Virus record (IMG/VR): IMGVR_UViG_3300037310_000065
Span: 1-38,067 of that record
Direction: 5' to 3' (one strand)
DNA length: 38,067 nt
Origin: a virus
Taxonomy: Duplodnaviria; Caudoviricetes
Shown: positions 1 through 19,472 of the stretch, one piece after another
Layout of the letters: each line of letters opens with the position of its first letter
Position numbering within the stretch: the stretch's first letter is position 1
Notes under the pieces: model-generated
Databases searched by the model: none
Seen by the model: the letters and a program-made list of their open reading frames with translations, nothing else
Told to the model about the DNA's origin: nothing
Translations under genes and position numbers: made by a program

Positions 1-2
1 TC

Positions 3-134
3 GGACATGCTTCGCCTTCGACAACGCGAATCGTTTACGCTCACACAAAGAAGGATGTATTGCGTGACCAATTGAACACATACGGCTTGTCGCCGCGAGA
101 GGCGATGAGCAACAGAACTAATCATGCCGTTTGA
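3..134 (+). CDS. int: Tyrosine recombinase/integrase, C-terminal fragment (5' truncated by window edge)
   Basis: Not in the ORF track. Frame from nt 3 reads GHASPSTTRIVYAHTKKDVLRDQL...HAV*, matching the (L)GHxxxxTTxxY box II motif with the catalytic Tyr. Confidence 0.85.
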   Translation, partial: GHASPSTTRIVYAHTKKDVLRDQLNTYGLSPREAMSNRTNHAV

Positions 135-465: not shown

Positions 466-484
466 CTACCTAGTCCGCTTTTTT
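451..484. terminator. Bidirectional intrinsic terminator
   Basis: Perfect 14-bp inverted repeat AAAAAAGCGGACTA-actacc-TAGTCCGCTTTTTT between convergent genes (465+ and 509-). Confidence 0.85.
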
Positions 485-508
485 GTCGCGCGCTCGTTGT
501 TATCGCGA

Positions 509-754
509 TCAGAAATCGCCGCAGCGCACATCGCACAGCGCATCGTACTCGTCGTCGATTCGTTTTGTCGCCATATCTGCGATTTCGTCAACGATGTCGC
601 ACATTTGTGCGAACCACGCTGCGCTCACGCCACGATCGATTATTTTTGCAGCGTGGTCGACTGCTGCGTTGACGAGAGTTTCGATCTGCAATTTCTCACG
701 CACGAGTCTGTCGCGCATGAATTCAATCTGTCCGTTTGTGCTGGTTGGTGTCAT
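509..754 (-). CDS. Hypothetical early protein (81 aa)
   Basis: GAGG RBS before ATG, own consensus promoter upstream, terminator downstream. Confidence 0.75.
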   Translation of the reverse strand: MTPTSTNGQIEFMRDRLVREKLQIETLVNAAVDHAAKIIDRGVSAAWFAQMCDIVDEIADMATKRIDDEYDALCDVRCGDF

Positions 755-806
755 TTTTTACCTCAGAGTCGCTATCTCTCGCAGCCATTATTGACTGCGT
801 GAATGT

Positions 807-834
807 ATTATACGGTTTACGCGCGAAATGTCAA
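807..834 (-). promoter_or_regulatory. sigma70-type promoter
   Basis: TTGACA (834-829), 16-nt spacer, TATAAT (812-807) on the minus strand, upstream of ORF 754-509. Confidence 0.8.
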
Positions 835-898
835 TAGGTTTACGGATAAACATTTGTGCCTATATCGGATGCATCGCAAATTCGCGAATTACCCCATC

Positions 899-928
899 AA
901 AAAAACCCCCGACAATCGGGGGCTTTTT
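899..928 (-). terminator. Intrinsic terminator (possibly bidirectional)
   Basis: CCCCCGA-caa-TCGGGGG stem flanked by A7 and T5, directly after the stop of ORF 1254-931. Confidence 0.8.
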
Positions 929-930
929 CG

Positions 931-1254
931 TCACTCACTCGGCTCGTGTTTTGGTAATTCGCATCGGGTGATGCGTTTCCTACCCGTCTCCACGTCGCGC
1001 GTGACGCGCAGGGCGTCGATATGTAGCGTCACGCCGTGTTCGCGCTCGTCTATCGTGACGACGACGCGCGCATCCGCCAGCAATGCGCGTAACGCCACCT
1101 GAAACATAACGAGCGTTTCGTCGATGCCAGTCGAGTCGTTATGTCGCGTCGTAGCCGAGCGCTGCACGCGCTGCGCGCGCGGTTTCGCGCTGTCTACGCT
1201 GCGTGTCTGATTCGCGTTCTGCACGCTCGATTGCGTCTGCGTATCTGTCATCAT
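931..1254 (-). CDS. Hypothetical protein
   Basis: GGAGG RBS before ATG at 1254, followed by a terminator; overlaps the 3' end of ORF 1588-1139. Confidence 0.6.
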   Translation of the reverse strand: MMTDTQTQSSVQNANQTRSVDSAKPRAQRVQRSATTRHNDSTGIDETLVMFQVALRALLADARVVVTIDEREHGVTLHIDALRVTRDVETGRKRITRCELPKHEPSE

Positions 1255-1588
1255 CGCTATTGCCTCCATTTATGTAAATTCTGCTGCCAAACCAAACTCG
1301 AGAGCGACCGCTGCCGACAGCGAACTGGAACACACGCTGCCCGTCACGACTGAACCCGCGCGATAGCAGCCTGACGCCCTCGATTTCCGAAAAATCCCAA
1401 GCGCCGTCGTCGCCGCCGCCGTAATCCGCCGTATTTGCCACGCGGGACGCATCCCGCAGACGATTTTCGCCGTCAGACGGGTCGGGACAGCCAAAAACAA
1501 ATTCATGCGCTCCCAGCCCCGTTTCTGTCGATTTTATGGCGTATTCAGTTTCGCGTGCAAATTGCGCCTCGCGGGACGCGTCCCGCAT
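1139..1588 (-). CDS. Hypothetical protein; possible -1 frameshift extension of the 2307-1630 membrane protein
   Basis: Frame stays open upstream into the end of ORF 2307-1630; no clear RBS. Confidence 0.5.
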   Translation of the reverse strand: MRDASREAQFARETEYAIKSTETGLGAHEFVFGCPDPSDGENRLRDASRVANTADYGGGDDGAWDFSEIEGVRLLSRGFSRDGQRVFQFAVGSGRSRVWFGSRIYINGGNSDDDRYADAIERAERESDTQRRQRETARAARAALGYDAT

Positions 1589-1629
1589 GTTCGTCTCGCC
1601 CGCCGTCGCCGAACCTGCTACGGCGACGG

Positions 1630-2307
1630 CTAATGAGGGTTTACCCCGTTGCTGTTCGGCGACGTTGAACGATTTTGGAATTGCGCGGGACTAGTAGCCA
1701 TCAGCTCTCGATTTATCGTGTCTGCGCGCGTCTCGCCAAACACCGTGAGCGCCTCGCGCGATGCGTCGCTGGCGAGCGCAACGCTGAGCGCGTTTGATTT
1801 AGCCAGCTCCAGCGCTTGCGCGATTTTTCGGCGCTGGCGCATCAACTGAATAGCGGGATCAGCATCGATCACGGCTTTCCAAAACGCAATTGTGACGGGG
1901 ATAACAATCGGAACGCACCAAAACGCATATAGCCGCAGAATGTCACTGTTAATAGATGCGTTCGTGAGCGCGTTAAATTCGATCACGCAATTGAGCGAAA
2001 CGAGAACAAACATCGCCCAGCCGAAAATTTTTGCTAACTGTCCCTGCAATCCGTGCGAGAACCACACAAAATTCCCCACGAGAAACGCAGCCAAACTGCC
2101 CTCGATCAGTAACGCGGGGATGACGCCTAGTACGCGCATTTCGTTCGTGAACGCACGCGAATACAGCATGAAATTCAGGACGCCAGTGAACAATAAACCG
2201 ATTGCGATGATCGCGCCCGCCGCGACCTGCACCAAAACACGTTTTGATTTATTTTCATCGGCAGCGATGAGGTCTGCGACGGTGTTTATTTTTTCGTTTT
2301 CAAACAT
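1630..2307 (-). CDS. Multi-pass membrane protein (about 4 TM segments plus a coiled-coil tail)
   Basis: Four hydrophobic stretches followed by a helical charged tail; AAGGA RBS before ATG 2307. Confidence 0.8.
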   Translation of the reverse strand: MFENEKINTVADLIAADENKSKRVLVQVAAGAIIAIGLLFTGVLNFMLYSRAFTNEMRVLGVIPALLIEGSLAAFLVGNFVWFSHGLQGQLAKIFGWAMFVLVSLNCVIEFNALTNASINSDILRLYAFWCVPIVIPVTIAFWKAVIDADPAIQLMRQRRKIAQALELAKSNALSVALASDASREALTVFGETRADTINRELMATSPAQFQNRSTSPNSNGVNPH

Positions 2308-2346
2308 TGTGATTTCCTTTTCGCATAATCGGCGTAGAATCACGTC

Positions 2347-2404
2347 GATCATGCACATTGAATCGGCATGATTGCGGACGGTTTACGCCGTCCGTTTTTA
2401 TTTA
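2347..2404 (+). ncRNA. Candidate antisense small RNA (two hairpins plus U tail)
   Basis: TAGAAT at 2335-2340; stems GATCATGC/GCATGATT and GCGGACGG/CCGTCCGT, then TTTTTATTT; G-U pairs form only on the + strand. Confidence 0.45.
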
Positions 2405-2596
2405 TTCTTCATCCCCCCCCCTTGCCGCGATGCGCGCGGCGCGCCATTTACTGAACCCGTCGACATCGACGAGCCATATCCATCCAATTTTTTTATGCCA
2501 TTTTTCGCCGCTGTGTTTGCGGCACAGTGACCGTAGATACTCGCGGTCGATTTTCAGTTTTGTTGCTGCATCGCGCAGCTCTATAAATTTATCCAT
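2402..2596 (-). CDS. Small HTH DNA-binding protein (excisionase/MerR-like)
   Basis: FIELRDAATKLKIDREYLRSLCR...KKIGWIWLVD matches the HTH_17-type pattern; probably leaderless from extended -10 TGaTACAAT (2611-2603). Confidence 0.75.
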   Translation of the reverse strand: MDKFIELRDAATKLKIDREYLRSLCRKHSGEKWHKKIGWIWLVDVDGFSKWRAARIAARGGDEE

Positions 2597-2652
2597 TTGC
2601 AGATTGTATCATGTAATATGAGGCGTGCGACAAATCTATCTACGAAAACATA

Positions 2653-2681
2653 TTGACAAAGCGCGCTCGTGTGAATATGAT
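2653..2681 (+). promoter_or_regulatory. sigma70-type promoter (leaderless transcript)
   Basis: TTGACA-17-TATGAT; GTG at 2688 lies 7 nt after the -10 box; back-to-back with the leftward promoter. Confidence 0.75.
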
Positions 2682-2687
2682 GCTCGC

Positions 2688-3074
2688 GTGACAAAATTTC
2701 AGATTTGGCAAAAGCGCGTAAACAAATACGCGCAAAAAATCAAAAACGGACAAACAGACAAAAAGGCGCTTATTAAAAGCGCAAAACACGAATACGGCTA
2801 CCGTCCCGCGAAGGCGCGTCGGTTTGTCGACGAGGCGTTTGTTGTTGCGGGGGGGGGGACGGTCGAAAAGGATCGTGGCGGTCGCACAGTGGTCTACCAC
2901 ACAATCGACACGACCGATTGCGCGCTTGCAATGCGCGTAATCGAAAAACTCGGATTTACGGCAACGTGCGAGGATGGCACGTTGCGAATGAAAAAATGGC
3001 AAAACGGATTACGCGCGTGGGAGATTGTCGAGGCGGCGTTAGCGGTCGCGTTTGACGAATCGTTACGCGCTTGA
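2688..3074 (+). CDS. Hypothetical basic protein, possibly a DNA-binding regulator
   Basis: In-frame GTG at the predicted TSS; Lys/Arg-rich N-terminus; contains a G10 tract. Confidence 0.65.
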   Translation: MTKFQIWQKRVNKYAQKIKNGQTDKKALIKSAKHEYGYRPAKARRFVDEAFVVAGGGTVEKDRGGRTVVYHTIDTTDCALAMRVIEKLGFTATCEDGTLRMKKWQNGLRAWEIVEAALAVAFDESLRA

Positions 3075-3099
3075 CAAGCGCGACAATAACATGTAGTAT
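3071..3099 (+). promoter_or_regulatory. sigma70-type promoter of the replication operon
   Basis: TTGACA-17-TAGTAT with a TG extension. Confidence 0.75.
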
Positions 3100-3160
3100 G
3101 TAATCAACGCGCGAACGACTGTGCATTGCGTTCGTGCTAAATAGATGATGTGTACCGTCG

Positions 3161-3248
3161 TCGGCTTTGAGAAGCCGTCGCGTTAGCGCACACCCGTTGA
3201 CGGTCGGGAAAATGCACAACGTGACGCGCGACGGTTTCTCAGAGCCGA
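3161..3248 (+). promoter_or_regulatory. Structured 5' leader of rep
   Basis: TCGGCTTTGAGAAGCCGTCGCG pairs over 22 nt with CGCGACGGTTTCTCAGAGCCGA; the only imperfections are G-U pairs. Confidence 0.65.
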
Positions 3249-3278
3249 TTTGTTTTTCCGTAACGCAATCAACCAGCA

Positions 3279-4280
3279 ATGAACAAAATAGCGACCTCAG
3301 ACGAACGACGCACATTTTTTTCGCGCGTAGACCATTACGCGCAGTGGGGAGCAGACCTAACACCGAACGAGTTTAGATGCTACATGCACTATGTAGCATT
3401 ATGCGAGTGGGGCGGTGCGGTTGCATGGTGGCGGGAAAATGTAGCGGACGAAAATCCATTCTCGAAAACAGTGATGGCGCGCGTATTGAAAATGAGCGTT
3501 CACACTGTCGTAAAATGCCGTCGATCACTGATCGACAAAAACCTCATTCGTGCGTCTCGCAAATACCGCGACGCTAACCCCAGTGAGTCACGTTTTTATT
3601 TAGAAATCTCTATTGTCGATAACACGGAAAAAAATCTCTCGTTTTGCGTAAAAAACAGGGGTGAAATTAACACCCCTGACGATGGAAACAGGGGGCAAAA
3701 TAGACCCCCTGCAGGGGGCAAAGTAGACCCCCTGAATACGCGAAACAGGGGGCAAAATAGACCCAGTACAGAAGAATTAAATAATAATAATAAAAAACAG
3801 ATCGCGCATCCGCGCGATGTTTCCCCGCCCGATTTTTCAGCAGCTAAACCGAGTGACCCACTCGGACACATTTTCGAGCGTCACACACGCTCGCGCGAAC
3901 AAAAAACACAGTCTGTCATCGCGTCGTGGAATTGCAGTCAACACATCCGCGATTTTTGCATCACGTTTGCGCAGCTCACGATGATCATCCCAACCGCGCA
4001 GAATAAGACGCGGTGGATGCGCGAAGCAAAAACACTAATCCAGAACGGCGTAACGCCAGATGAGATGCGCGCAGCGTGGCAACGATTAAAAAATACGACG
4101 CTGACGATTGTGTCGCCTGCGGGATTATTTTCGACGATTCAGAGTTTGCGCGCAAAACACACGCGCGATGAAATAGAAGCGATGACGCAATCGGTGAATG
4201 ACGAACCGCGCGACGGCAATCGTTTGACAGCCGAACAATTAGAGCGCATCCGTTTATTAGCGCGTGCGGCGGTGACGTAA
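3279..4280 (+). CDS. Phage replication initiator (N-terminal winged HTH, internal iterons)
   Basis: LTPNEFRCYMHY...SKTVMARVLKMSVHTVVKCRRSLIDKNLI wHTH; central repeats; directly upstream of a helicase, as for lambda O. Confidence 0.8.
   Translation: MNKIATSDERRTFFSRVDHYAQWGADLTPNEFRCYMHYVALCEWGGAVAWWRENVADENPFSKTVMARVLKMSVHTVVKCRRSLIDKNLIRASRKYRDANPSESRFYLEISIVDNTEKNLSFCVKNRGEINTPDDGNRGQNRPPAGGKVDPLNTRNRGQNRPSTEELNNNNKKQIAHPRDVSPPDFSAAKPSDPLGHIFERHTRSREQKTQSVIASWNCSQHIRDFCITFAQLTMIIPTAQNKTRWMREAKTLIQNGVTPDEMRAAWQRLKNTTLTIVSPAGLFSTIQSLRAKHTRDEIEAMTQSVNDEPRDGNRLTAEQLERIRLLARAAVT
3656..3797. repeat. Iteron array and AT-rich tract: probable replication origin
   Basis: Four CAGGGG(G)-caaaataga-(C)CCCCTG-like dyads at 3656, 3689, 3712 and 3746 (last one partial), then AATTAAATAATAATAATAAAAAA. 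Confidence 0.8.
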
Positions 4281-4304
4281 AAAAAAAACTAGCGAGATAC
4301 AACC

Positions 4305-5381
4305 ATGACCAGCAACAACAACACATTATTTCAGTCATACGAACTCGCGCAGGCGAGTGACCTCATCGTTCGCGCGAAAACGGACATCACAAACGCGCTG
4401 AGCGCGGGGCGCGTGTTACCGCGAACATATTTACCTGTCATCGACGAGCCGATGACGGGTATGCCAAACATGCCATTCTTTGGCGCGCAACTTTGTCTTG
4501 TAGTTGGTTCCACGAATCACGGCAAAACCCCGTTGCTTACGTACATGGCTACGCGATACGCGCGCGACATCGTGGCGTCTAGCGCGTGGCAAAACTCAGA
4601 ACGACGCGGACGCATTCTCTATTTTGCGCTTGAGGATTACGTAGAGTCGATGCGGATGCGGTTTGCCAGAAGCGGGAATTTGCATCTGACCGCGATCACG
4701 AATCCGATGATGAGCGCAGCGCAGATCAGGCACGTTTTGTCTGAGAGTGATGATCTACCGATAGTCGTTTGTGGTTCGAGCATCGCGGACAGCGACGCAA
4801 AATTGTCACTTACCGAATTTGGTTCGAGTAGCCCGACTGTATCGAAAATTGCTCGAACGATTGCGACGCTATATCACGCGCACAAAATCATGCCAATCGC
4901 GGTCTATATCGATCATTTCCATTTGCTATCGACCGAGAAAAAACACAGTGGAATTAACGAGCGATACGAGCGCGTCGGAGAAGAAATTGTCGAACTCATT
5001 TCGTGGCTGCGCGACGTACCTCTTTTTGTCGGCGCGCAGGCGAACGTTAAGGACATCGCAAATCGACCTGCAAAAAAGCGCCAGCCTGACGCGCAAGACA
5101 TGCGTTACGGATCAGCGGCGCTCGATTACGCGCGCGATGTGATAACCGTGTGGCGACCAGCGAACGACGGTCTCGACGACGCAGAGACACTTGAGATCGT
5201 GCAGCGCGGCAAAAACAAAATAACCGTGCCAACGCATCCTAGTTTTCTTTTTGTAAAAAGTGCAAAGGCGCGGTTTGCGCCGATCGTTGGCGTTATAGAC
5301 GTTCTGTCGCTCGGCGGCTATCTACCTAATTCTCGACACGGCGACGTTACGCCGATTGAATTTTCATCAGTGGAGTTTTGA
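4305..5381 (+). CDS. DnaB-like (SF4) replicative helicase
   Basis: Walker A GSTNHGKT, FALED (motif 1a), YIDH (Walker B), GAQAN, DMRYGSAALDYARD. Confidence 0.85.
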   Translation: MTSNNNTLFQSYELAQASDLIVRAKTDITNALSAGRVLPRTYLPVIDEPMTGMPNMPFFGAQLCLVVGSTNHGKTPLLTYMATRYARDIVASSAWQNSERRGRILYFALEDYVESMRMRFARSGNLHLTAITNPMMSAAQIRHVLSESDDLPIVVCGSSIADSDAKLSLTEFGSSSPTVSKIARTIATLYHAHKIMPIAVYIDHFHLLSTEKKHSGINERYERVGEEIVELISWLRDVPLFVGAQANVKDIANRPAKKRQPDAQDMRYGSAALDYARDVITVWRPANDGLDDAETLEIVQRGKNKITVPTHPSFLFVKSAKARFAPIVGVIDVLSLGGYLPNSRHGDVTPIEFSSVEF

Positions 5382-6385
5382 TTGTGAATACCGTCTACGA
5401 AAAACTGATTGTCCCTATCGCACACGAATCTCGTTTTGTGTGCTGGCGTGGAACAAACAAAATTCCGTTCAACGCCGCGAATGGCAAAACCGCAAGCGTC
5501 GTGGATGCGACGACGTGGAGCGATGCTGCGACGTGTCGTGCGTTTTTCACGCGCGATGCGGGTGGGGGGATAGGCGTCGTGTTCACTCGCGACGCGCGCT
5601 TCACTCGACTTGTCGGAGTCGATCTCGATGACTGTCTCAACGCGCATGGCGCGATCATCAGAGACGACGTACGCGAGTTCGTCGAGATGCTCAATTCGCT
5701 GACAGTCGTCAGCGCGTCGGGGCGCGGTTTGCATATTTATTTGCGCGTCAACGACACTCGCACGCTCGACGATGTGTCGATACGAAATAAACACGCCGCG
5801 CGTAACGCTGACGGACTCGCGTTTGCCATGATGGAGATATACGACGACGCGCGTTATTTCCGCGTCGCGCGATCTCCGATTGCATACCGCGACGTGGATA
5901 TTCGATGCGTTGGCATCGACGAGATAGCGTTCGCGTGTAAGTTTTTCGACGACCTCGACGAATACGTCGAGCCAGAAATTGTTGAGTCACGCAAACCCGC
6001 TAGATTCAACGCAGGCGGGGGGGGGGATAGTGTTATCGCGCAGTACAACCTTCAGCGCAACGTCGCTGATTTGCTCAAACGTTTTGGCTATCACATTTCG
6101 GCAAGCGGAAAATATTTCACTCGACCAAACAAAAATCCACGCGATGGCGTGTCGGGGATGATTAACGACGATGGCAGCGCGTATTCGTTTTCGGTAAATG
6201 ACGCGATGCGTGTCGAGAAAAACGGACACGTCTACACGTTCCGCGCGTTCGATGTTTTGTGTGCGATCGGACATGATGGAGATGTTCGCGCTGCGGTCGC
6301 AGCAGCCGCGCGCGAACTTGGACTACAGCACACGCCGCGCGCGTTTGGTATCTCGGATTTGGCGCGTGTGGCGACGGGCTACTAA
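5378..6385 (+). CDS. Primase-polymerase (AEP superfamily) with a C-terminal accessory domain
   Basis: KIPF...TTWS...GIGVVF...GVDLDDC...SASGRGLHIY...EIYD..RYF motifs of phage prim-pol proteins. Confidence 0.85.
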   Translation: MIVNTVYEKLIVPIAHESRFVCWRGTNKIPFNAANGKTASVVDATTWSDAATCRAFFTRDAGGGIGVVFTRDARFTRLVGVDLDDCLNAHGAIIRDDVREFVEMLNSLTVVSASGRGLHIYLRVNDTRTLDDVSIRNKHAARNADGLAFAMMEIYDDARYFRVARSPIAYRDVDIRCVGIDEIAFACKFFDDLDEYVEPEIVESRKPARFNAGGGGDSVIAQYNLQRNVADLLKRFGYHISASGKYFTRPNKNPRDGVSGMINDDGSAYSFSVNDAMRVEKNGHVYTFRAFDVLCAIGHDGDVRAAVAAAARELGLQHTPRAFGISDLARVATGY

Positions 6386-6406
6386 AAGATACATAGTAAT
6401 ATGTAG

Positions 6407-6435
6407 TTGACAAGCGCATACGTTTGTGGTATGAT
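6407..6435 (+). promoter_or_regulatory. sigma70-type promoter
   Basis: TTGACA-17-TATGAT with TG extension; ATG at 6445 gives a near-leaderless mRNA. Confidence 0.75.
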
Positions 6436-6444
6436 CTTATCGAC

Positions 6445-6687
6445 ATGAAAATCACGCAGATTACAGTGACACACAAACGCACAATTCAGATTCGGAGATT
6501 CGAACCGCTGACTGTCGAGCTGGGCGCAGCGGCTGATGTTGACGAGTCCGATAATGTGCAGGATGCGTACGCGAGACTGCTCGCGGAACTACGCGAGGCG
6601 ACGCGGGCGTATTGTGTGCCGTTTGTCGAAGCGGCGGGTTTTCGTGTCAAAGAACAAGAATCAGTATCAGCATTAGAACAAATATAG
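6445..6687 (+). CDS. Hypothetical protein
   Basis: MKITQITVTHKRTI...; directly behind the promoter. Confidence 0.7.
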   Translation: MKITQITVTHKRTIQIRRFEPLTVELGAAADVDESDNVQDAYARLLAELREATRAYCVPFVEAAGFRVKEQESVSALEQI

Positions 6688-6698
6688 GAGAAACGAAA

Positions 6699-7391
6699 AT
6701 GGCACTAGACGAAAAAACACTTTCAAGAAATCGCCAATGGCTCAATGTTGAAGGCATGAGCGAGGGTGAAACGTTTTCTCATGTCGTGCAGGCGTCGACA
6801 GAGGTTGTCTCGCGCTTTAATGCGGGGCAGACTGAGTTTACCGTCACGTTTGCGGAAAGAAACAGCGACGGTAAAAATATCAGGTGGTCAATACCCATCT
6901 CGCGAAATGCGCACACGCAGAAAATCATAGACTATTTCCGCTCGCGTGGTGTAGACGGAGCGATAGAAGCGGATATGCTCGTGGGTTTGCGTTTTGACTT
7001 TTCTGTCGTCAGAGAGCCGAAGTCGATGCGCGACTCAACACTGATGAACAAGCTGCGCATCGCGTCGATCACTGATACGCGCGCTCAACACGCTTCACCT
7101 GCTGAGCAGGCTGAACATGTTGCACCTGCTGAACGCGCTCAACCCGCTGCGCAGGGTGCTCGTGTCATCCCGTTTGATGTGGAGAAACTCGAAGAATTGC
7201 GTGAGTGGCTCGCAAAAAACAACCTGTCAACACAACAACTGGATACGGTCGAGAAGCGGTTGGAAGTTACCGCATCTATGGGTGGAGTTTCACGAAATGA
7301 AATATATCACGCGACTAACGACTTGCCGTCGCAGCGTGAGCGAATTAACGCGCTGATTGATTTGCTATTAGCGTCTCCGATTCCGTTTTGA
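6699..7391 (+). CDS. Hypothetical protein (possibly SSB/recombination-associated; acidic IPF end)
   Basis: AGGAG RBS; beta-rich N-domain, PAE linker repeats, C-terminal IPF resembling SSB tails. Confidence 0.6.
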   Translation: MALDEKTLSRNRQWLNVEGMSEGETFSHVVQASTEVVSRFNAGQTEFTVTFAERNSDGKNIRWSIPISRNAHTQKIIDYFRSRGVDGAIEADMLVGLRFDFSVVREPKSMRDSTLMNKLRIASITDTRAQHASPAEQAEHVAPAERAQPAAQGARVIPFDVEKLEELREWLAKNNLSTQQLDTVEKRLEVTASMGGVSRNEIYHATNDLPSQRERINALIDLLLASPIPF

Positions 7392-7401
7392 GGTGAACAA
7401 A

Positions 7402-7668
7402 ATGGCGAAAAACAACTGTGCAGCATGCGCTCGTATTGATGAATTAACTGAAATGACGCGCACGCAATTCATTGTTGCTTGCGTCGGCGAAATAGAACTT
7501 GATGTTGTCGAGTGCGCTGCTGGCGTTGGCGAAGCAAGATTGAACGCACGCTATTTCTCATGTGTGAACGGTCACGTGCTTTTCTATGACCCGACATTCT
7601 GTGACCATTACGTCAGAGTAGATCATCTGGCGTATGACAAAACACTCGGATTGTATGAGATTGAGTAG
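7402..7668 (+). CDS. Small Cys-rich hypothetical protein
   Basis: GAGGTG RBS; CAAC and CVNGH possible Zn ligands. Confidence 0.6.
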   Translation: MAKNNCAACARIDELTEMTRTQFIVACVGEIELDVVECAAGVGEARLNARYFSCVNGHVLFYDPTFCDHYVRVDHLAYDKTLGLYEIE

Positions 7669-7732
7669 AAAGTAATGATCCTCGTAGCGACCCCGTGCGG
7701 TCTAACAACCGCGCGGGGAGAGGTAAAACAAA

Positions 7733-8698
7733 ATGACACCAACCAGCAACGATTTACACCAATTTTTCTATGACAGCGTCGCATACAGCGATGCGCTTGC
7801 GGCACGCATCAAGCCGAAATTGATGCGCGAACTGAAATCACAACCAACGCGCGGCATGCTCCCCGCGCGAGTACGCCTTTCCATTCAACTTTTGCTCCTG
7901 TTTTGTTTCATGATCGCGTTCGCGCTGGGCGGTTGGTTGCGCCCAGCGCGCGCGGTCTCATGGAGCAGTGACGTAAACGATATTGTTTACGTCACTGCCG
8001 TCGTAGACGGCATGTCAGTTACGTTTCCCGTCAACCAGCAGAGGTGCGAGGCGGGTTCGTTCGCCTTTCGCGTCGATGGAGTTCGGTATCGCGTTCACGG
8101 TTTTGTTGAGACTGGATATATCGACCAGCGCGGACGATTTGTATCGCTGGAATATCGCGTATTTGACCAGTCTAGCGACGTGCTGATTCAGATGCAGTTC
8201 CCGCCTGCGAGCGGGTGGGGGACGAATCCAGAGAACGTCGCGGAGTTTCACGCGCGCTATGCGTTGAATCGACACTACGCGCAAATTTTGCGCGGTGATG
8301 CGTTCGACTTTTGGTGTCACGATGTCATGAGACTGACACCGTCACCGAGCGCAACGTCAACTACCGCGCCGAGTGCGACTGCAACATCAACGAACACGCC
8401 AGCGCCTAGCGCGACTATTCGCGCAACGTCAACGATTGCGCCGAGCGTGACTTCTACAAACACGCCACGCGCAACGAACACTGCATCGCCGAGCGCAACC
8501 GCGCGCGTAACAGCGACTAGCACGCCGCCGATTGTTCCGCCCTATCCGCAAACCGCGACGCTTGCGCCGCTTGCGGTGGAGGATACGCCAGCCCCCCCCC
8601 GCAATTTGACGCCGCGCGTGTGGTTGCCGATTGTTATCAATCAAATTCAATTTGCAAATGACTGCGACGTTAGAACGTTGCCAGCCGTTTGCAATTAG
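7733..8698 (+). CDS. Exported/membrane protein with Pro/Thr linker and a VWLPIV C-terminal motif
   Basis: GAGG RBS; TM/signal segment ending in ARA; TATST repeats; RVWLPIV resembles the Chloroflexota xYLPxx motif. Confidence 0.75.
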   Translation: MTPTSNDLHQFFYDSVAYSDALAARIKPKLMRELKSQPTRGMLPARVRLSIQLLLLFCFMIAFALGGWLRPARAVSWSSDVNDIVYVTAVVDGMSVTFPVNQQRCEAGSFAFRVDGVRYRVHGFVETGYIDQRGRFVSLEYRVFDQSSDVLIQMQFPPASGWGTNPENVAEFHARYALNRHYAQILRGDAFDFWCHDVMRLTPSPSATSTTAPSATATSTNTPAPSATIRATSTIAPSVTSTNTPRATNTASPSATARVTATSTPPIVPPYPQTATLAPLAVEDTPAPPRNLTPRVWLPIVINQIQFANDCDVRTLPAVCN

Positions 8699-8711
8699 GA
8701 GAAAACCAGCA

Positions 8712-8912
8712 ATGAATAGCGAATATCTACAAAATCAACTTGACCGAATCATTTACGCGCTCGGATTGAAAAATCCGACGCGCGCGCAGATTGAGGCGGT
8801 GAAATCCGTGCTTGTGTTGGTATGGCATGACGCGCAAAACGAATGTGTTTCTGTTGCTCATGATGGATTCAGCGCGGAGATGTCTCTCAATTACGAGTTG
8901 ACTGTCGGATGA
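8712..8912 (+). CDS. Hypothetical protein
   Basis: AGGAG RBS, ATG 8712. Confidence 0.65.
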   Translation: MNSEYLQNQLDRIIYALGLKNPTRAQIEAVKSVLVLVWHDAQNECVSVAHDGFSAEMSLNYELTVG

Positions 8913-9436
8913 AACGCATCATTTTTGTTTGCTGTTTGTTTTTGTTGGGTTGCGACGCTCGACCAGTGTCGCAGCCACAACCAATCGCGCAGCCGCAACC
9001 GATCGTACAACCGCAACCGCAGGCTGGCGATGTGTTTCTCACGACGCGCAGCGTAGTAAATCTGCGCAGCGTTCCATCGACGGATAGCGTGCCACTCGCG
9101 GAATTGCCGCGCGGCGTTCGGTTGACGCCACTGTTTCAACGTGTAGTAGCTAACTACACGTGGTACAGGGTTGCAGTAGATGGGAGCGAATGGGGCGGAT
9201 GGGTGCGGGCTGATGTCGTTAGCGTGCATGGTGACGCGAGCGCAATTCCGATTGCGAATCCAGATGTGCCTACGTCTGCTCCGCCAGTTCCGCCGATGCC
9301 ACCGACACCGATGCCGTCGCTACCGACACAACCGATTCAACCGACACAGATTCCGCAGACACCGACGCCGACCGCAATTCCGCTCGGCGTCGTGACTACG
9401 GCAGGAATTGTAATTATCGTCACGGCAGCGCCGTAA
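8909..9436 (+). CDS. Lipoprotein with SH3b domain and Pro/Thr-rich tail
   Basis: MKR+hydrophobic+LLGC lipobox; VNLRSVPST...WYRV...GWVRADVV SH3b pattern. Confidence 0.8.
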   Translation: MKRIIFVCCLFLLGCDARPVSQPQPIAQPQPIVQPQPQAGDVFLTTRSVVNLRSVPSTDSVPLAELPRGVRLTPLFQRVVANYTWYRVAVDGSEWGGWVRADVVSVHGDASAIPIANPDVPTSAPPVPPMPPTPMPSLPTQPIQPTQIPQTPTPTAIPLGVVTTAGIVIIVTAAP

Positions 9437-9449
9437 GGAGTTTAAGAAC

Positions 9450-9698
9450 ATGAAAGATAAACGATTGTTTGAGATTATTTCGCGCGAAGTTGCTAATGAA
9501 GTTGGCGCGAATTTCGCGGCTGTTCACATCTCGCGCGAGGCGGGAATGGACGGCGAAAGATATTATTTGTCGCAATCAAGTTTTCGTGATGATGTAGTCC
9601 GCGTATTGAGTGAAATTGCGTCTGCGCATCGTGTGATTGGCAGTGATGTTGTCTTTCGCGTTTTGTCTGACGCGATAACGGAGATCAAGCAATTGTAG
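9450..9698 (+). CDS. Hypothetical protein
   Basis: AAGGAG RBS. Confidence 0.65.
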   Translation: MKDKRLFEIISREVANEVGANFAAVHISREAGMDGERYYLSQSSFRDDVVRVLSEIASAHRVIGSDVVFRVLSDAITEIKQL

Positions 9699-9768
9699 AA
9701 AAAAAAAGAGTGCGGCGCACTAGCGATATGCGCCGCACAGGAGTTAGTTGTTATTACAACCAACCAGC
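9699..9768 (-). ncRNA. Candidate trans-acting antisense small RNA (~70 nt)
   Basis: Own promoter; hairpin GUUGGUUGU-aaua-ACAACUAAC; terminator GUGCGGCGCA-uaucgcuag-UGCGCCGCAC then UC and U9; complementary to several start regions. Confidence 0.75.
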
Positions 9769-9775
9769 GAGCGCG

Positions 9776-9803
9776 ATTATATTATTTTTCGCATCGCTGT
9801 CAA
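9776..9803 (-). promoter_or_regulatory. sigma70-type promoter for the small RNA
   Basis: TTGACA (9803-9798), 16-nt spacer, TATAAT (9781-9776); no credible protein gene before the terminator. Confidence 0.8.
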
Positions 9804-9815
9804 TGGGGGCAAACG

Positions 9816-10100
9816 GTGGAAATTAGCGAAAAATCAATCAAACTTTATTTCGAGATGGTGAAATTCATGGCGAAAAATGGCGTGCCGCCAACAATTCGCG
9901 AACTGAAAACTGCTCTCGGATATAGTAGCGCCAGCACTGTAATTCACCATCTCCACGAATTGAAACGCGCGGGAATGGTAGTTGAGGCTGGCGACGGTCA
10001 TCGTGCGCGCTCTATTTTGCCGCGAATAGTTTTTGCCAAAATCAAAATCGCTTGCGAGCTAGAAAAATTGCGCTACGGCAAGGCGATGGGGTTGGAATGA
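9816..10100 (+). CDS. LexA-type DNA-binding domain protein, no peptidase domain
   Basis: GVPPTIRELKTALGYSSASTVIHHLHELKRAGMV...RARSI is the LexA N-terminal wHTH signature; only 94 aa. Confidence 0.85.
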   Translation: MEISEKSIKLYFEMVKFMAKNGVPPTIRELKTALGYSSASTVIHHLHELKRAGMVVEAGDGHRARSILPRIVFAKIKIACELEKLRYGKAMGLE

Positions 10101-10492
10101 GGCGCAACGCTATCGTCGTCGTCGTCGTCGAGTTTCCGACGCGCGAACTTGGGCAAAACCATCGCGGCAGCTGGCGGACGACGTTTGCCGCAAAACGTGA
10201 CGCGCGGTTTCAGGCAAAAATAGAGGCGCAGAATGTGTTATCACGTTCTACGTTTCGATTTTCTACATCATCGACGTTTCGCGTTCAGTGTGCGATCTAT
10301 GCGCCAAATCGTAGAACAGACGTGATGAACAATTTTTGCGCACTGAAAAACGCGATTGACGGCATCGCGGACGCGCTCTGCGTCAACGACAGCAGGTTTG
10401 TGGATTTTAGATTTTCCCGCGCTGGCATCGACTCAAACAATCCTCGCGTCGAGATTACTGTTTCATCGTTGCAATCTAGTTCTAAATGCTGA
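10097..10492 (+). CDS. rusA: RusA-like Holliday junction resolvase
   Basis: PNRRTDVMNNFCALKNAIDGIADALCVNDSRF...NPRVEITV matches the RusA DxxN...K...D...DD pattern. Confidence 0.8.
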   Translation: MRRNAIVVVVVEFPTRELGQNHRGSWRTTFAAKRDARFQAKIEAQNVLSRSTFRFSTSSTFRVQCAIYAPNRRTDVMNNFCALKNAIDGIADALCVNDSRFVDFRFSRAGIDSNNPRVEITVSSLQSSSKC

Positions 10493-10607
10493 TATTTCGC
10501 AGAGCATTTGTTCTGAGACGACAGAAAATGCAACGTGAGCGGTATGCGCAGCACATACACGCAACTAACCAGCACGTTACGTCACGCTACCGCTCACCGT
10601 TTCAATT

Positions 10608-10868
10608 ATGGTCGCGCAAACACGTAGCGAAAACGGGAAAACTGATGATAGTTCCTCGCGAAAACCGCGTGGGATCAGCGGGTACGACGCGAACTCACGC
10701 CGTTTTTTATTCACGCTGACGCCCGATGGCGTTATAAAATTTTGCGTTGCTGGCAAAACCTATTTGGTTGACATCGACCGTCTGCTCGATTTCCACGAGC
10801 GCGGCGTTTGCTCTGTGCGAATCTCTGCACTACCCGAAATGAAAGCGGATGATTTGAGTGTAGAATAG
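10608..10868 (+). CDS. Hypothetical protein (position typical of a late-gene regulator)
   Basis: Last ORF before the lysis operon; start uncertain. Confidence 0.5.
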   Translation: MVAQTRSENGKTDDSSSRKPRGISGYDANSRRFLFTLTPDGVIKFCVAGKTYLVDIDRLLDFHERGVCSVRISALPEMKADDLSVE

Positions 10869-10898
10869 CCACGCAAAAATAAAACGCTAATGCGCTCA

Positions 10899-10941
10899 AG
10901 CGCGAGGCAACCTCATGTGAGGTCGTCTCGCGTTTTTTTTT
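10899..10941 (+). terminator. Intrinsic terminator/attenuator before the lysis cassette
   Basis: AGCGCGAGGCAACCTCA-tg-TGAGGTCGTCTCGCGTT imperfect stem ending in a T9 run. Confidence 0.75.
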
Positions 10942-10959
10942 ATTCGTTTGGAGGCAAAT

Positions 10960-11343
10960 ATGCAATTTGATTTTTCTCAACTGCTAACCGTCGCTGGATT
11001 AACCAGCGCAGCGAGCGCGCTCATCGCACTCGTGTTTATCCTCGTCCCGCCTGCGCGAGCGCGGTTTGAGGCGCTCGATGGTGAGATTCAGCGCGCGGTG
11101 AACGGCGCGATCATCGTCGTGATTGGTGTAGCTGTATCGGGTGCGTCGTGCGTCGGACTGACGACTGTTGTCGCGTGTACCGCGAACGATCTCGTCTCGT
11201 ACTTCGTGTCGGTCGTGTTTGCGGCTGTCATCGCGCTCGGCGTGACGAAAGCGGAATACGGAATTGCTCAAGCGGTTTACCAACGCCGTGTCCGTGCGCG
11301 CGCAATTGGTGCAGCTCCGAATACGCCGAAATTGCTCGGATAA
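10960..11343 (+). CDS. Putative holin (about 3 TM)
   Basis: GGAGG RBS, three hydrophobic segments, basic C-terminus, upstream of the endolysin. Confidence 0.65.
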   Translation: MQFDFSQLLTVAGLTSAASALIALVFILVPPARARFEALDGEIQRAVNGAIIVVIGVAVSGASCVGLTTVVACTANDLVSYFVSVVFAAVIALGVTKAEYGIAQAVYQRRVRARAIGAAPNTPKLLG

Positions 11344-11350
11344 AAAAAAC

Positions 11351-11560
11351 ATGTCTGACTGGGTCGGGTGGGCGCTGGTAATAGCGAACGCGACGGCAAT
11401 TTTTATTCTCATCGTGCAATCGTTAAACATTCGTGATCTAACGCGCGCAATCGAACACAACACGAGCGCGATAGAACACAACACGGATGTTTCGACGAAC
11501 GCGATTACAGAGATAAAAATCTTGTCAGCGCGGATAACAGCGCAAAACCCAAACGAATGA
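11351..11560 (+). CDS. Small single-TM coiled-coil protein (holin/antiholin-like)
   Basis: N-terminal TM followed by AIEHNT repeats; in the lysis cassette. Confidence 0.6.
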   Translation: MSDWVGWALVIANATAIFILIVQSLNIRDLTRAIEHNTSAIEHNTDVSTNAITEIKILSARITAQNPNE

Positions 11561-11835
11561 GGCGTCGAGGGACTACTAGCGCATCTCCCGCGCCGCCAAC
11601 CAACGCAGATTTCAAAACGCAACATCGTAACCGAATAATCGATGCGCTCCGCGACAAATTTTCGTCGGGGGAAATTGAGGTGCTTGCTGTCTCGCTCGGC
11701 GTGGACGCGGATAGTTTGAGGCGTGAGCCGCGCGATTTGTTTGCGCTCGATCTAGTTACACATTTAGAACATCGCGACAGACTGCACGAACTCAGCGCGA
11801 TGATTCGTTTGCTCAGACCGAATGTAATTCTATGA
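11557..11835 (+). CDS. Standalone effector-associated (EAD7-like, death-fold-like) domain protein
   Basis: FSSGEIEVLAVSLGVDADSL...ALDLVTHLEHRDRLHELSAMIRLLRP resembles the F-xx-E-L...LGVD...L...RGRL..L......RP pattern. Confidence 0.55.
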   Translation: MRRRGTTSASPAPPTNADFKTQHRNRIIDALRDKFSSGEIEVLAVSLGVDADSLRREPRDLFALDLVTHLEHRDRLHELSAMIRLLRPNVIL

Positions 11836-13535
11836 ACCTGCGATTTGACCAACCAGTTGGTAGCGCGTCCGACCGCGAGGGGTTCGCGTGGGGGGGGGGA
11901 TGGTGGGACGCGACGGGGTACGCAAGGTTTTACGACGCGACGGGTCGTGGTGGACGACCAAACGCTTACCATACTGGCGTCGACCTCAACAATGGCGTCG
12001 GACGCGCGGACTACGGGCGTCATGTTTACGCCTGCGCTGACGGCGTTGTCGTGTACGCAGCGCGTGCGACCGTGTGGGGGCTGATTGTGTGCATCGAACA
12101 CACAGACGGCGTCGAGCGTGTGTGGTCGCGCTACGCTCACATGATCGACACGCCAGTTGTCGTCGGTCAGCGTGTCGAGCGCGGCGACCTTGTCGGTCGA
12201 GTCGGAGATGCAGACGGAACACAAGCGTCGCATCTGCATTTTGACATCGCGCGAATTGATTTGTCAAAACATCCGACTGACTGGGCAGGGATGGACAAAG
12301 CGCGTGTTCAGCGTGATTATCTCGATCCGCGATTGTTCATCAATGCTCATCATAGATACACCGCGACGACAACAGCAAAAACACTTGCCGAATTGCGCGT
12401 GCGATCAGCGCCGAAAACTAGCGCAAACATATTATTCACGTTGCCGCGTGACGCATCGGTTGTCATCAATTCGTTTGTTGACGGTGAAAGCGTTGCAGGA
12501 AACACGCGCTGGGCAGCCGTAACCGTTGCGCGCAAAACAGAGTTCGTTGTCGGCGGCGTGTCTGTTCAATCGACAATCGAATCAGTTGGCGACGGTTACT
12601 GCTCCGCGAAATATCTGTTTGTCTCAACGCAGACTCCCCCCCCCCAACCACAACCACAACCACAACAAAACGCGATTGGCGTTCATCCTGCGCTACCCGC
12701 GCTCACGATGAACAAACGAATCGGTCTCCACGTCATGGAACGCATCGAGGAAGCGCGAACCGCGCTCGATCTCGGATGCCGCGCGTTTACGTCGCTGGAT
12801 AACATCGCGGGCGCGCGTGAGATGCGTTCGCGTGGTGCTGCCGTGATCGTTCGTCGTTTCATTCCGCATGGCGTTATTCCCGATCCGCGCGAATTTGCGC
12901 GCGCAATCGGGCTAGGCAGCGATGACACGCTTATTGTGATGGGTGTCAACGAAGCGGACAACATCAGCACAAGCGAAATAGAAAAACGGTTTGAGTGGGA
13001 TCGAGCGTTTGCAGACGAAATTCTACAAATCGCGCCGCGATGTTTCCCCGTGATCGGTTCATGGAGCATGGGGACGCCGCAGATCGAAAACGCAGACGTC
13101 GCAAAACGATTCCGCGACACATACGCCGCATATTTGAACGCGAACAAAAGTCGTGTTGGGCTGAACTATCACAGCTACTCGCGTCGCGTCGATGTAACGT
13201 TACCGCCAGCGAATGTCGCGGTTGATGACGCGCAGTGGTACGAGATGCGATTTCTGCGATTCGCGTACGACAAAAATCTAGGCGGTCTCGACAACGGGGT
13301 CGTTCTCGTCAGCGACGAAAGCGGCGTCGACATCGGCGGGCATGGCGGATTCAAAGGGTGCGGATATGGCACGGACGATTTCCGTCGATGGTGGCAGATA
13401 CGCAAACGGATGTTCGAGGTGTATCCGCAGATGTATGTTTTTAATCTGTTTCAAGCGTCTCCGCGCGCGGACTGGGCAGGGTATGACGTGCGGGGATATT
13501 TTGATGCGCTCGCGGGAATTTGGGGGGGGGCATGA
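11832..13535 (+). CDS. Modular endolysin: M23 peptidase + SH3 + QP linker + glycoside-hydrolase-like domain
   Basis: HTGVDL, YAHM and HLHF (M23 Zn ligands); LRVRSAP (SH3b); PPPQPQPQPQ linker; GVNEAD and SDESG resembling GH-A catalytic glutamates. Confidence 0.85.
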   Translation: MNLRFDQPVGSASDREGFAWGGGWWDATGYARFYDATGRGGRPNAYHTGVDLNNGVGRADYGRHVYACADGVVVYAARATVWGLIVCIEHTDGVERVWSRYAHMIDTPVVVGQRVERGDLVGRVGDADGTQASHLHFDIARIDLSKHPTDWAGMDKARVQRDYLDPRLFINAHHRYTATTTAKTLAELRVRSAPKTSANILFTLPRDASVVINSFVDGESVAGNTRWAAVTVARKTEFVVGGVSVQSTIESVGDGYCSAKYLFVSTQTPPPQPQPQPQQNAIGVHPALPALTMNKRIGLHVMERIEEARTALDLGCRAFTSLDNIAGAREMRSRGAAVIVRRFIPHGVIPDPREFARAIGLGSDDTLIVMGVNEADNISTSEIEKRFEWDRAFADEILQIAPRCFPVIGSWSMGTPQIENADVAKRFRDTYAAYLNANKSRVGLNYHSYSRRVDVTLPPANVAVDDAQWYEMRFLRFAYDKNLGGLDNGVVLVSDESGVDIGGHGGFKGCGYGTDDFRRWWQIRKRMFEVYPQMYVFNLFQASPRADWAGYDVRGYFDALAGIWGGA

Positions 13536-13540
13536 AACGG

Positions 13541-13673
13541 TAGATCGTCTGCAACGTGAGCAGCGCGGCAGCACTATCGCATTCATTCGCTAACGCGATC
13601 TGCGGGTAGGGTGTCGTCCATCCGCAGTGTATCGACTGAATGCCGTCCGCCCGACTCACCGTTGCAGACGCTA
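13541..13673. ncRNA. Long rod-like structured element between endolysin and terS
   Basis: Nested stems 13546-56/13660-70, 13556-60/13655-59, 13579-85/13637-43, 13600-05/13622-27. Confidence 0.5.
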
Positions 13674-13724
13674 CGGTAGATTATACGCCTGTCAAATTAA
13701 ATGTTGACAGCGCGTCAACAAATT

Positions 13725-14120
13725 ATGGCGACGAAAAAACGAACAGGGCTTGCTCCTGCTGATGGCACGCACGGCAACAGCGAAAAAAAGCGACCGCGTG
13801 GCAATCCAAAGAACATCGAAAAATACCAGTGGCAAAAAGGGCAGAGCGGAAATCCGTCAGGGCGTCCGCGCAAGATCGAAACACTGCTACGACAGGCGTT
13901 GATGGCACGCCTTGCGGAGTTGGTCGAGCAAAATGGTGGCGTTAAATCGGTTGCCGAAATACTTGCCATGAAAATCACGAGCGAAGCGGTTGCAGGCAAA
14001 AACGTTGTGCCTGCGTTCAAAGCCATCGCGGATGTGGTTGAACCGCGACGACTAGAGGTTGACACTGACGGACATATCGAGATCGTCTACGTCAACGACT
14101 GGAGAGAGAGCAAGACGTGA
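13725..14120 (+). CDS. terS: Terminase small subunit (probable)
   Basis: WQKGQSGNPSGRP motif; ends in IEIVYVNDW; directly upstream of terL. Confidence 0.75.
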   Translation: MATKKRTGLAPADGTHGNSEKKRPRGNPKNIEKYQWQKGQSGNPSGRPRKIETLLRQALMARLAELVEQNGGVKSVAEILAMKITSEAVAGKNVVPAFKAIADVVEPRRLEVDTDGHIEIVYVNDWRESKT

Positions 14121-15385
14121 TCGTTAGATTACCGATGCCGCACACGGGTCAGCGATTCGTGATGCGCAACCGCAAACGATTTAATCATCTGCGCGCAGGG
14201 CGCAGATGGCGTAAAACGACATGCGTCATGCAGATACTCGTCGAAGAAGCGTTGCGAACACGGCAAAGCTATATGTGGTGCGCGCCAACCTACGATCAAT
14301 CACGAACCGCGATGGACGAGATAAAAAAAGCGCTGCGTAACGTCGCTGAGTTCAACGAGTCGAGAATGAGCGCGACGCTCGCGGGGGGCGGTGCGATCCT
14401 GTTTCGTTCGTTGGACAACTCCGACAACCTGCGTGGCAAAACCGCCGCTGGCGTTGTCATCGACGAGGCAGCAGAAACAGAGGGCGATGCGTGGTACGAG
14501 GTGCTGCGACCGATGCTCATCGACACAAACGGCTGGGCGTGGTTCGTTTACACGCCGAAGGGGCGAAACTGGATTTTCAACGAATGGCAACTTGCGATGA
14601 CGCGAGACGATACCGCGTTATTTCACGCGCCAACGCTCGGCGTCGAGATCGTCGGCGGAACGTTGACACGAAAAACACACGCGCTCGAAAATCCGTTTAT
14701 CGAATTTGCGGAGATCAAACAACTATATGAAACGATGCCAGAGACATCGTTTCGTCAGGAGATTCTCGCGGAGTTTGTCGAGGTCGGCGGGGGAGTCTTT
14801 CGGAACGTCTCTCAATGCGCAACAGCGACGGCGCAATCCGCAGCGTCGCTCAATCACACATACGTCGCGGGCGTTGATTGGGCGCTCACGACCGATTACA
14901 CCGTGTTAACGATCATGGATGCGACAACAAACGAGGTTGTTCACATCGACAGATTTAGCGGCGTCGAATATGCGCTGCAACGGCAACGCATCGCTGCGAC
15001 ATGCGCGCGATTTAACTGCGCAGTCATTGTCGCTGAAGAAAACGCGATGGGAAAGCCGAACAACGACTTTTTGCGGCAACATGGTTTGCCTGTCCGCGAT
15101 TTCACGACGACAAACGCATCTAAATCGACGTTGATCGAAAACCTCGCGGCTGCGTTCGAGCATCGACACATACGAATACTGAATAACGCACATCTGCTCG
15201 GCGAGCTAAGCGCGTACGAGGGTAAGCGACTTGCGGGAGGGGGTGTCCAGTATTCCGCGCCGTCTGGTCTGCATGACGACATGGTCATGTCGCTCGCGCT
15301 CGCGTGGCACGCTGCCGCACGCGGGAACTACGCTCAACTTGACGGAGAGATTATTCGGTCTGTTGCAGCGGGGGGGAGGTTTTAG
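14117..15385 (+). CDS. terL: Terminase large subunit
   Basis: AGRRWRKT Walker A, LRG, VVIDEAA Walker B, TPKGRNW, GVDW and HDD nuclease motifs. Confidence 0.95.
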   Translation: MIVRLPMPHTGQRFVMRNRKRFNHLRAGRRWRKTTCVMQILVEEALRTRQSYMWCAPTYDQSRTAMDEIKKALRNVAEFNESRMSATLAGGGAILFRSLDNSDNLRGKTAAGVVIDEAAETEGDAWYEVLRPMLIDTNGWAWFVYTPKGRNWIFNEWQLAMTRDDTALFHAPTLGVEIVGGTLTRKTHALENPFIEFAEIKQLYETMPETSFRQEILAEFVEVGGGVFRNVSQCATATAQSAASLNHTYVAGVDWALTTDYTVLTIMDATTNEVVHIDRFSGVEYALQRQRIAATCARFNCAVIVAEENAMGKPNNDFLRQHGLPVRDFTTTNASKSTLIENLAAAFEHRHIRILNNAHLLGELSAYEGKRLAGGGVQYSAPSGLHDDMVMSLALAWHAAARGNYAQLDGEIIRSVAAGGRF

Positions 15386-18986: not shown

Positions 18987-19466
18987 ATGGCGCGAATCGA
19001 AATAAAAATCGACAAACGTTTCCGCGACACGCAAACGCGAATCAATCGCGCGTTGCGCGAGGCGCGTGATGAGCTGGCGACCGAAACACGCGAGATGCAT
19101 CTCGCGACTGTCGCGACGTGGGATCACAAACCGAATTTCACGGTCAAAAAATATAAAAACGGGTTCGAGATTCGCGTGACGGGTGTGAACGCAAAAATAT
19201 GGCGCTTTGTGTCTGACGGCACGCGCGCGCATTTCATTCGTCCGCGTCGCGCAAAACGGCTACGTTTTCAGTCGAGCTATTCGGCGAAAACAGAGCCAAA
19301 CGTGATCGGGTCGAGCGCAGGCGGAGCGTTTGGCGCGAACGTGTTCGCGGCACAGGTGAGACATCCCGGTACGCGCGCGCGCAATTTCGAGAAAATCATC
19401 AGCAGCGACGCGCGAGAAATAGCGAAACGCATCTACCGCGAGAAACTGCGGGAGCTGCGCAAATAA
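18987..19466 (+). CDS. Second HK97 gp10-like protein
   Basis: DGTRAHFIRPRRAKRLRF...VRHPGTRARNF. Confidence 0.7.
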   Translation: MARIEIKIDKRFRDTQTRINRALREARDELATETREMHLATVATWDHKPNFTVKKYKNGFEIRVTGVNAKIWRFVSDGTRAHFIRPRRAKRLRFQSSYSAKTEPNVIGSSAGGAFGANVFAAQVRHPGTRARNFEKIISSDAREIAKRIYREKLRELRK

Positions 19467-19472
19467 CCAACC

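Follow-up and report, generated by a model that had tools for sequence, protein, structure and literature searches.

The candidate RNA locus and its genomic setting

Positions 9699-9803 of the tailed-phage record analysed here carry a candidate small RNA gene, which lies on the strand opposite to its flanking genes, ORF 9450 and ORF 9816, and has a promoter and a terminator of its own. The window, i.e. the whole stretch of DNA that was analysed, comprises 38,067 nt of a linear record estimated by CheckV to be 44% complete. A freshwater metagenome is the best-matching sequencing run and may be the source of the phage. The early block includes an O/DnaD-like rep gene (ORF 3279, plus strand), a DnaB-like helicase (ORF 4305, plus strand), a primase (5378), an ORF with a LexA-type HTH only (ORF 9816, plus strand) and RusA (10097), while an M23 endolysin, the terminase and structural genes are found elsewhere in the record.

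The sigma-70-type promoter (TTGACA-16-TATAAT; 9776-9803, minus strand) matches the consensus at 12 of 12 positions and places the predicted transcription start at G9768. Three scans, which between them span the window, identified only two promoters of this quality, the other one (807-834, minus strand) driving ORF 754-. Promoter, terminator and folding together predict a 70-nt RNA (9699-9768, minus strand) with two hairpins. Hairpin 1 (9742-9765) has 10 bp including two G-U pairs, formed between nt 4-13 and nt 18-27 of the RNA, and its loop (9755-9752) varies in relatives. The terminator hairpin (9710-9738) consists of an 11-bp stem with a 7-nt loop (9727-9721) and is followed by a U9 tail (9707-9699). 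Two short elements of this RNA, hereafter referred to as sites a and b, have complements (tags) near gene starts, and both are placed exactly by the boundaries of the RNA, site a at +1 and site b in the terminator loop. The initial annotation had placed site a (RNA nt 1-12; 9757-9768) at the 5' end; its complements are present, but the annotation had overlooked that the element is folded into hairpin 1, whose 5' arm it forms, with just a 3-nt toehold left unpaired.

The predicted fold is stable (z-score -6.9 against 200 shuffles) and favours the minus strand, which folds at -32.4 kcal/mol as compared to -26.0 kcal/mol for the plus strand, on which three G-U pairs would become A-C mismatches. 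The terminator (9738-9699) tops a list of 41 in positions 1-15000. A blind terminator screen of 55 sequences gave 199 candidates, among which the RNA came second overall and at the top of the three that have a promoter, relative to a control that is lenient, the control loci being smaller and partly redundant. Searches against Rfam produced nothing at gathering score and gave no match to the P4 CI or C4 RNAs at E<=1 over the whole window or at E<=10 over 9600-9900, where the best match was the Staphylococcus sRNA71 at 26.8 bits (gathering threshold 50). Read on the plus strand, the locus resembles a gene-start cassette, with site b, AGGAG and site a in succession.

No family match was found in the window for integrase, resolvase, ParA, HTH_3 or Peptidase_S24. 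The statement of the initial annotation that a CI-type repressor is not visible in the window thus holds; the record being only 44% complete, the missing integrase and repressor families are uninformative. No tRNA was found in the window. ORF 754- has no family match, with Atlas scores all below 0.9, and its model is a helical hairpin without a fold match. A further minus-strand ORF of 64 aa (2402-2596; ORF 2596-) is divergent from ORF 2625. Its low-confidence model (pLDDT 56) is a small strand-helix-helix-strand unit for which the fold search gave nothing significant, the Xis of Tn916 being among the non-significant matches.

Some additional features of the record may be mentioned. The interior of rep (3652-3771) contains four imperfect palindromic repeats of about 30 nt, likely to be replication origin iterons. 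Three rightward promoters (2653-2681, 3071-3099 and 6407-6435, plus strand) have TTGACAA(A)GCGC in common at and after the -35 element, letters that a phage protein could use as an operator. For the first of these, the predicted +1 coincides with an in-frame GTG (2688, plus strand), and an ATG at 6445 (plus strand) lies only 10 nt past the -10 box of its promoter; the two mRNAs are possibly leaderless or nearly so, judging from these positions. A strong terminator-like hairpin (19760-19787, plus strand) separates ORF 19473 from the head genes. An EAD7 domain protein (11557-11835), an SH3 protein (8909-9436) and Pro/Thr-rich membrane-linked proteins (7733-8698) are encoded as well and may hint at a Chloroflexota host; a host search gave no assignment.

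Paired tags at early gene starts

The promoter, the terminator and every target coordinate of the initial annotation were found in place. Upstream of and across the rep start (3263-3294, plus strand), site a occupies 3266-3277, followed by the ATG at 3279 and site b at 3289-3294. At the helicase start (4288-4313, plus strand) the order is reversed, site b (4288-4295) preceding a site a (4298-4313) from which the UG of the AUG is bulged. Similarly, site b (7685-7690) precedes site a (7738-7747) at ORF 7733 (7685-7747, plus strand), and in ORF 754- (774-740, minus strand) site b (774-769) falls in a predicted leader loop ahead of site a (749-740). ORF 8712 (8704-8722, plus strand) has site a at 8704-8710, ATG at 8712 and site b at 8717-8722. 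The sixth target, ORF 10608 (10562-10630, plus strand), is doubtful: it has a 12-nt site a (10562-10573) and a site b (10625-10630), and its start is without a Shine-Dalgarno (SD) sequence and was skipped by the automatic gene caller. The tags accordingly vary in order (a-b or b-a), in spacing (6-52 nt) and in position relative to the start (-48 to +17), and occur in leaders as well as in three reading frames; site a tolerates a 2-nt insertion. The AUG lies either between both tags or within site a, which covers or abuts it in five genes. A conserved A on the 3' side of site a is unexplained by pairing.

The leader of ORF 9816 (9699-9829, plus strand) carries the full cis complement of the RNA together with an extra site b (9824-9829), which in one low-depth contig of a relative, read past 9809, ends in G instead of A, so that G-U pairing would be possible. 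A weak additional candidate, absent from the initial annotation, is ORF 19473 (19420-19477, plus strand), with site b at -53, a bulged site a across the AUG and cofolding at the 2.6th percentile. Fifteen nt into the endolysin gene (11848-11865, plus strand), a 10-nt complement to site a is followed by five of the six letters of site b; its net cofolding is unremarkable (11th percentile). Tags internal to ORF 7733 (8033-8178) were read as Asn/Asp-Gln codons and rejected, and an enrichment of CACTAG (4/5) was left uncounted as the rest of site b does not follow.

Enrichment was examined in a window of -60/+30 around starts, with 9691-9810 masked in counts and windows alike, for 45 curated and 46 automatic starts. 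Since some of the curated starts derive from the initial annotation, the automatic set matters for the interpretation. Relative to the curated starts, AACCAG, with seven of its 12 copies close to a start, and TAGCGA, with 11 of its 36, ranked first and second among 3902 hexamers; relative to the automatic starts TAGCGA fell to sixth and AACCAG to eighth. The co-occurrence of both tags near starts, the check proposed originally, was well above background: six of the 45 curated and five of the 46 automatic starts have double tags, whereas random sets of 45 windows averaged 0.21 and never exceeded 4 in 20,000 draws. Double tags were confined to early starts (6/19, versus 0/26 for late ones; Fisher P 0.003). 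The complement of the RNA scored above all 13,805 non-start windows and was matched by only one of 5,000 shuffles. Two pairs of targets look like duplicated cassettes from their sequences, ORFs 754- and 7733 having a 19-nt block and rep and ORF 8712 a 13-nt block in common; the six targets may therefore represent three to four independent events, for which the Poisson P ranges from 0.0013 to 7e-5. Site b is only 6 nt long and, as had been cautioned, TAGCGA is common in this genome (36 copies outside the masked locus) and frequent in coding DNA; its accessibility near starts is not significantly higher (P 0.16).

Cofolding was computed for whole molecules with the cost of opening hairpin 1 included, an approach that cannot model loop contact. 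The seven best of the 45 starts by net cofolding were helicase (best), ORFs 10608, 754-, 8712, 9816 (in cis) and 7733, and rep, at -11.4 to -7.9 kcal/mol. These are the six double-tag genes and the cis neighbour, and none of them lies above the 0.7th percentile when set against 700 random windows. The start of the terminase gene came next at -7.7 kcal/mol, pairing through the U-tail instead of the seeds. The weaker cases of the initial annotation stayed weak (ORF 22917 at the 73rd and ORF 1254- at the 24th percentile), and an anti-SD pairing of AACUCCU with ORF 9450 could not be sustained, the cofolding being at the 13th percentile and most of the motif lying within a stem. Predicted unpaired probabilities average 0.72 for site a and are 0.19-0.37 for site b at rep, helicase and ORF 10608.

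The locus and its targets in relatives

The close relatives found are short contigs that represent two other haplotypes. The sequencing runs that could be used were three, all classed as DNA; no RNA run carrying the locus was among those listed, which has no bearing on expression. In the first, L077, promoter, seeds and terminator are the same as in the window; the hairpin-1 loop differs, and one stem pair is changed from U-A to U-G. As its left flank is identical at 478 of 480 positions, this conservation says little, and what can be learned from L077 is that its differences cluster in the loop. Compared over 9219-10361, identity continues for 25 nt into ORF 9816 and then drops to 182/260, with 70-77% identity from 9841 on, a pattern suggestive of a recent exchange that ends at or near the ORF 9816 start, i.e. 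a mosaic boundary. A contig from run X2 carries on with the letters of L077; it is therefore not independent and the two were counted once. The second haplotype, X3, is a single contig of depth 2.4, aligned over 9702-9809 only and with five substitutions; its listed changes, which omit two of the five substitutions, fall in the hairpin-1 loop, together with a 1-nt deletion at 9770. This deletion, between the -10 box and the predicted start, is the only change in the promoter region among those listed for X2 and X3. The indels in relatives rule out a conserved plus-strand peptide.

At nt 14-16 of the RNA, both L077 and X3 read G-U-C in place of the A-A-U of this genome. The G14-U15 of the relatives would pair at six of six positions with the rep, helicase and ORF 10608 sites of this genome (P 0.015 given leader composition), and their loop letters would lengthen the pairing at these three sites to 15-17 bp. 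Among the 256 possible 4-nt extensions, that of L077 ranks second on four targets and seventh on five, compared to ranks of 227 and 244 for this genome's own; G/U-rich extensions are, in any case, favoured by A/C-rich leaders. The pairing of the relatives' loop is best regarded as modest out-of-sample support from sequence, and the loop of this genome is inferred to be the derived one.

A rep homologue of 75% identity (P0039), called from an upstream start, has a translated leader that reads Q-P-T-S against Q-S-T-S in the window, which implies C in place of T at the wobble position 3269. The position is flanked by indels on both sides, and at the amino-acid level the leader is compatible with a site a that is perfect. 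The helicase homologue (P0002) retains M-T-S. The principal claim of the initial annotation, an independent RNA that could pair at two sites with dispersed early starts, is supported by the promoter, the enrichment and the cofolding, but it is weakened at ORF 10608, where three letters of site b are changed in at least two X2 contigs. The covariation of RNA and targets that it had proposed to look for did not appear: a change in the seed with a matching change in a target was not seen in the two other haplotypes. It had further argued that C-to-T differences, which give G-U pairs, favour RNA pairing over a DNA operator. The changes in question, C>T and A>G, belong to the transitions, a class that makes up 382 of the 680 changes listed in run X2, so the argument adds little, the probability of five transitions in a row being about 0.056.

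Pattern searches for the RNA gene returned 49 loci in viral contigs (none real), three in a second viral scan (none real), five in genome contigs (none real) and 11 in metagenome contigs, of which one, L077, was real. A search with the hairpin-1 pattern gave no match. One viral locus (L094) that matched the target-cassette pattern had neither a complementary RNA pattern nor protein similarity to the window and was dismissed as chance. Helicase queries found no viral locus and no cultured phage; relatives by terminase are distant (25 loci at 28-53%, cultured phages below 60%), and the LexA-like gene was found in none of five tested records.

Probable function, alternative readings and known systems

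The element is probably the gene of a 70-nt trans-acting RNA that would repress five to six dispersed early-gene starts together by two-site antisense pairing, the proposed targets being rep, helicase, ORFs 754-, 7733 and 8712 and possibly ORF 10608. The exposed terminator loop would contact site b first, after which the short 5' toehold (in relatives, the hairpin-1 loop) would invade hairpin 1, so that two contacts would be needed. The resulting duplex of 10-17 bp over the ribosome-binding region, with the AUG covered or bracketed, would block initiation, and the predicted net gain from pairing at site a after unfolding is 8-11 kcal/mol. No plus-strand terminator is listed between ORF 9450 and ORF 9816, so rightward read-through toward ORF 9816, a perfect complement, could titrate the small RNA. 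As to its role, damping or shut-off of early genes appears the most plausible, short of being probable; lysogenic or carrier-state immunity, of which P4 is an example, is a serious possibility of slightly lower standing, and replicon copy control, known for plasmid antisense RNAs such as those of pIP501 and ColE1 (PMC5415839, in the part of that source available), seems unlikely. A wider conjecture, which we regard as distinctly unlikely, is that the RNA replaces a protein repressor, acting as a constitutive two-contact gate that silences early genes genome-wide and is made bistable by its own read-through complement, with the hairpin-1 loop as the determinant of immunity specificity between relatives.

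That the tags are instead binding sites of a protein, on mRNA or DNA, comparable to the start-associated sequences (SAS) or stoperators of mycobacteriophages, with 9699-9768 as an extra copy or an unrelated small RNA, is improbable. Such a reading would account for the asymmetry and sense orientation of the tags near the starts of non-structural genes, traits also reported for SAS (PMC3203893), and for the letters in common that exceed the complement (the 3' A and the 13- and 19-nt blocks); small HTH candidates are encoded in ORF 9816 and, without a significant fold match, ORF 2596-. It has difficulty with tags whose order and spacing change and with the 2-nt insertion accepted by site a, features more easily reconciled with a flexible RNA partner than with a protein operator, and with complements that lie exactly at +1 and in the loop. 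Moreover, a decoy would bear the sense motif, whereas it is the antisense strand that has the promoter and the terminator, and this orientation argues against one. Equally improbable is a real RNA acting in cis only, its target being the leader of ORF 9816 in read-through transcripts. In this reading the dispersed tags would be leftovers of duplicated start cassettes, and the locus would itself derive from such a cassette. The cassette-like plus strand of the locus, the apparent homology within two target pairs and the identity to L077 through the beginning of ORF 9816 are compatible with this, yet the helicase and ORF 10608 sites match neither cassette pair and bind best. Site a was also apparently kept despite indels in the rep homologue, and hairpin-1 loop changes would be free of cost in cis, yet the loop of the relatives fits the trans targets.

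An RNA that pairs at the same sites and activates translation or stabilises the mRNAs might be suspected from those site b copies that lie within predicted structure (rep, helicase and ORF 10608). Pairing of a small RNA over the start region should occlude ribosomes, and site a, over or beside the AUG in five genes, is mostly unpaired already; occlusion is thus the expected outcome and activation very improbable. The least credible reading is a chance combination of A/C-rich spacers and common N-terminal codons. CAACCA-like spacers do precede late genes too, and TAGCGA owes part of its abundance to coding DNA, but the tags occur in leaders and in all three frames, and the masked nulls rarely approach the observed values.

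A repressing antisense RNA with two separate pairing elements, as predicted here from sequence for sites a and b, recalls the CI RNA of satellite phage P4, a small RNA which pairs at two sites (seqA and seqC) and keeps replication genes off; the excerpted account describes it as processed from the transcript it controls, causing premature termination (PMC4825925). The present element differs from it in having its own promoter and terminator, tags at several separate start codons and no Rfam match. The C4 RNA pairs through two elements. In the portions of the sources at hand, this antisense RNA of P1/P7 (RF01695) represses phage genes, its target being the icd-ant operon, which belongs to the same immI region (PMC8201110, PMC2864571). 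Our candidate is like C4 in being a phage antisense RNA that would repress phage genes, and unlike it in giving no hit to RF01695 and in having targets among which an antirepressor was not recognised.

Separate short complementary blocks, without one long overlap, are also used by RNA II of the pAD1 par locus, a short RNA that blocks ribosome binding; as outlined in part of the source, it acts on one toxin mRNA, with which it is convergent and shares a terminator (PMC4147584). The dispersed targets here are many and non-overlapping and include no identified toxin; the adjacent convergent ORF 9450, considered as a type I toxin gene, has no family match or tag pair. According to one source, most of the antisense RNAs described from phages control a single gene or the operon they belong to, and its supplementary list of 38 undescribed phage sRNAs could bear on the novelty of the element (PMC12197685). 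A literature search, largely of freely available papers, returned no account of a phage whose RNA is the complement of paired tags at many starts of its own genome. The nearest multi-operon case found appears to be SviR of the Vibrio cholerae PLE, reported in the part of the preprint available to act in trans, without Hfq or ProQ, on several own-genome operons near their 5' UTRs, using one seed per genome, PLE or ICP1 (bioRxiv 10.1101/2022.04.08.487710). The element resembles sRNAs of this kind in its own promoter, its intrinsic terminator and its short imperfect complements near several starts; it departs from SviR in that a single target has matches to both seeds, placed around the AUG. No sequence relation is expected. 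The element probably works in the manner of P4 CI, pAD1 RNA II or SviR and is a member of none of these groups.

The SAS of cluster K mycobacteriophages are likewise asymmetric tags near the starts of non-structural genes, each being one 13-bp SD-containing block 3-7 bp before the start, for which the passages available leave an RNA or a protein partner open (PMC3203893). The tags described here differ in sequence, in being two and separate, in their variable position and in that the genome which carries them also has a candidate gene for a complementary RNA. If the proposed reading is true, they would define a translation-level regulon, in which two short tags around early-gene start codons have their complement encoded as one RNA. 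Such an arrangement is readable from sequence alone and can be tested with reporters without phage culture, and it would provide a specific hypothesis for how orphan motifs near gene starts, SAS among them, might work.
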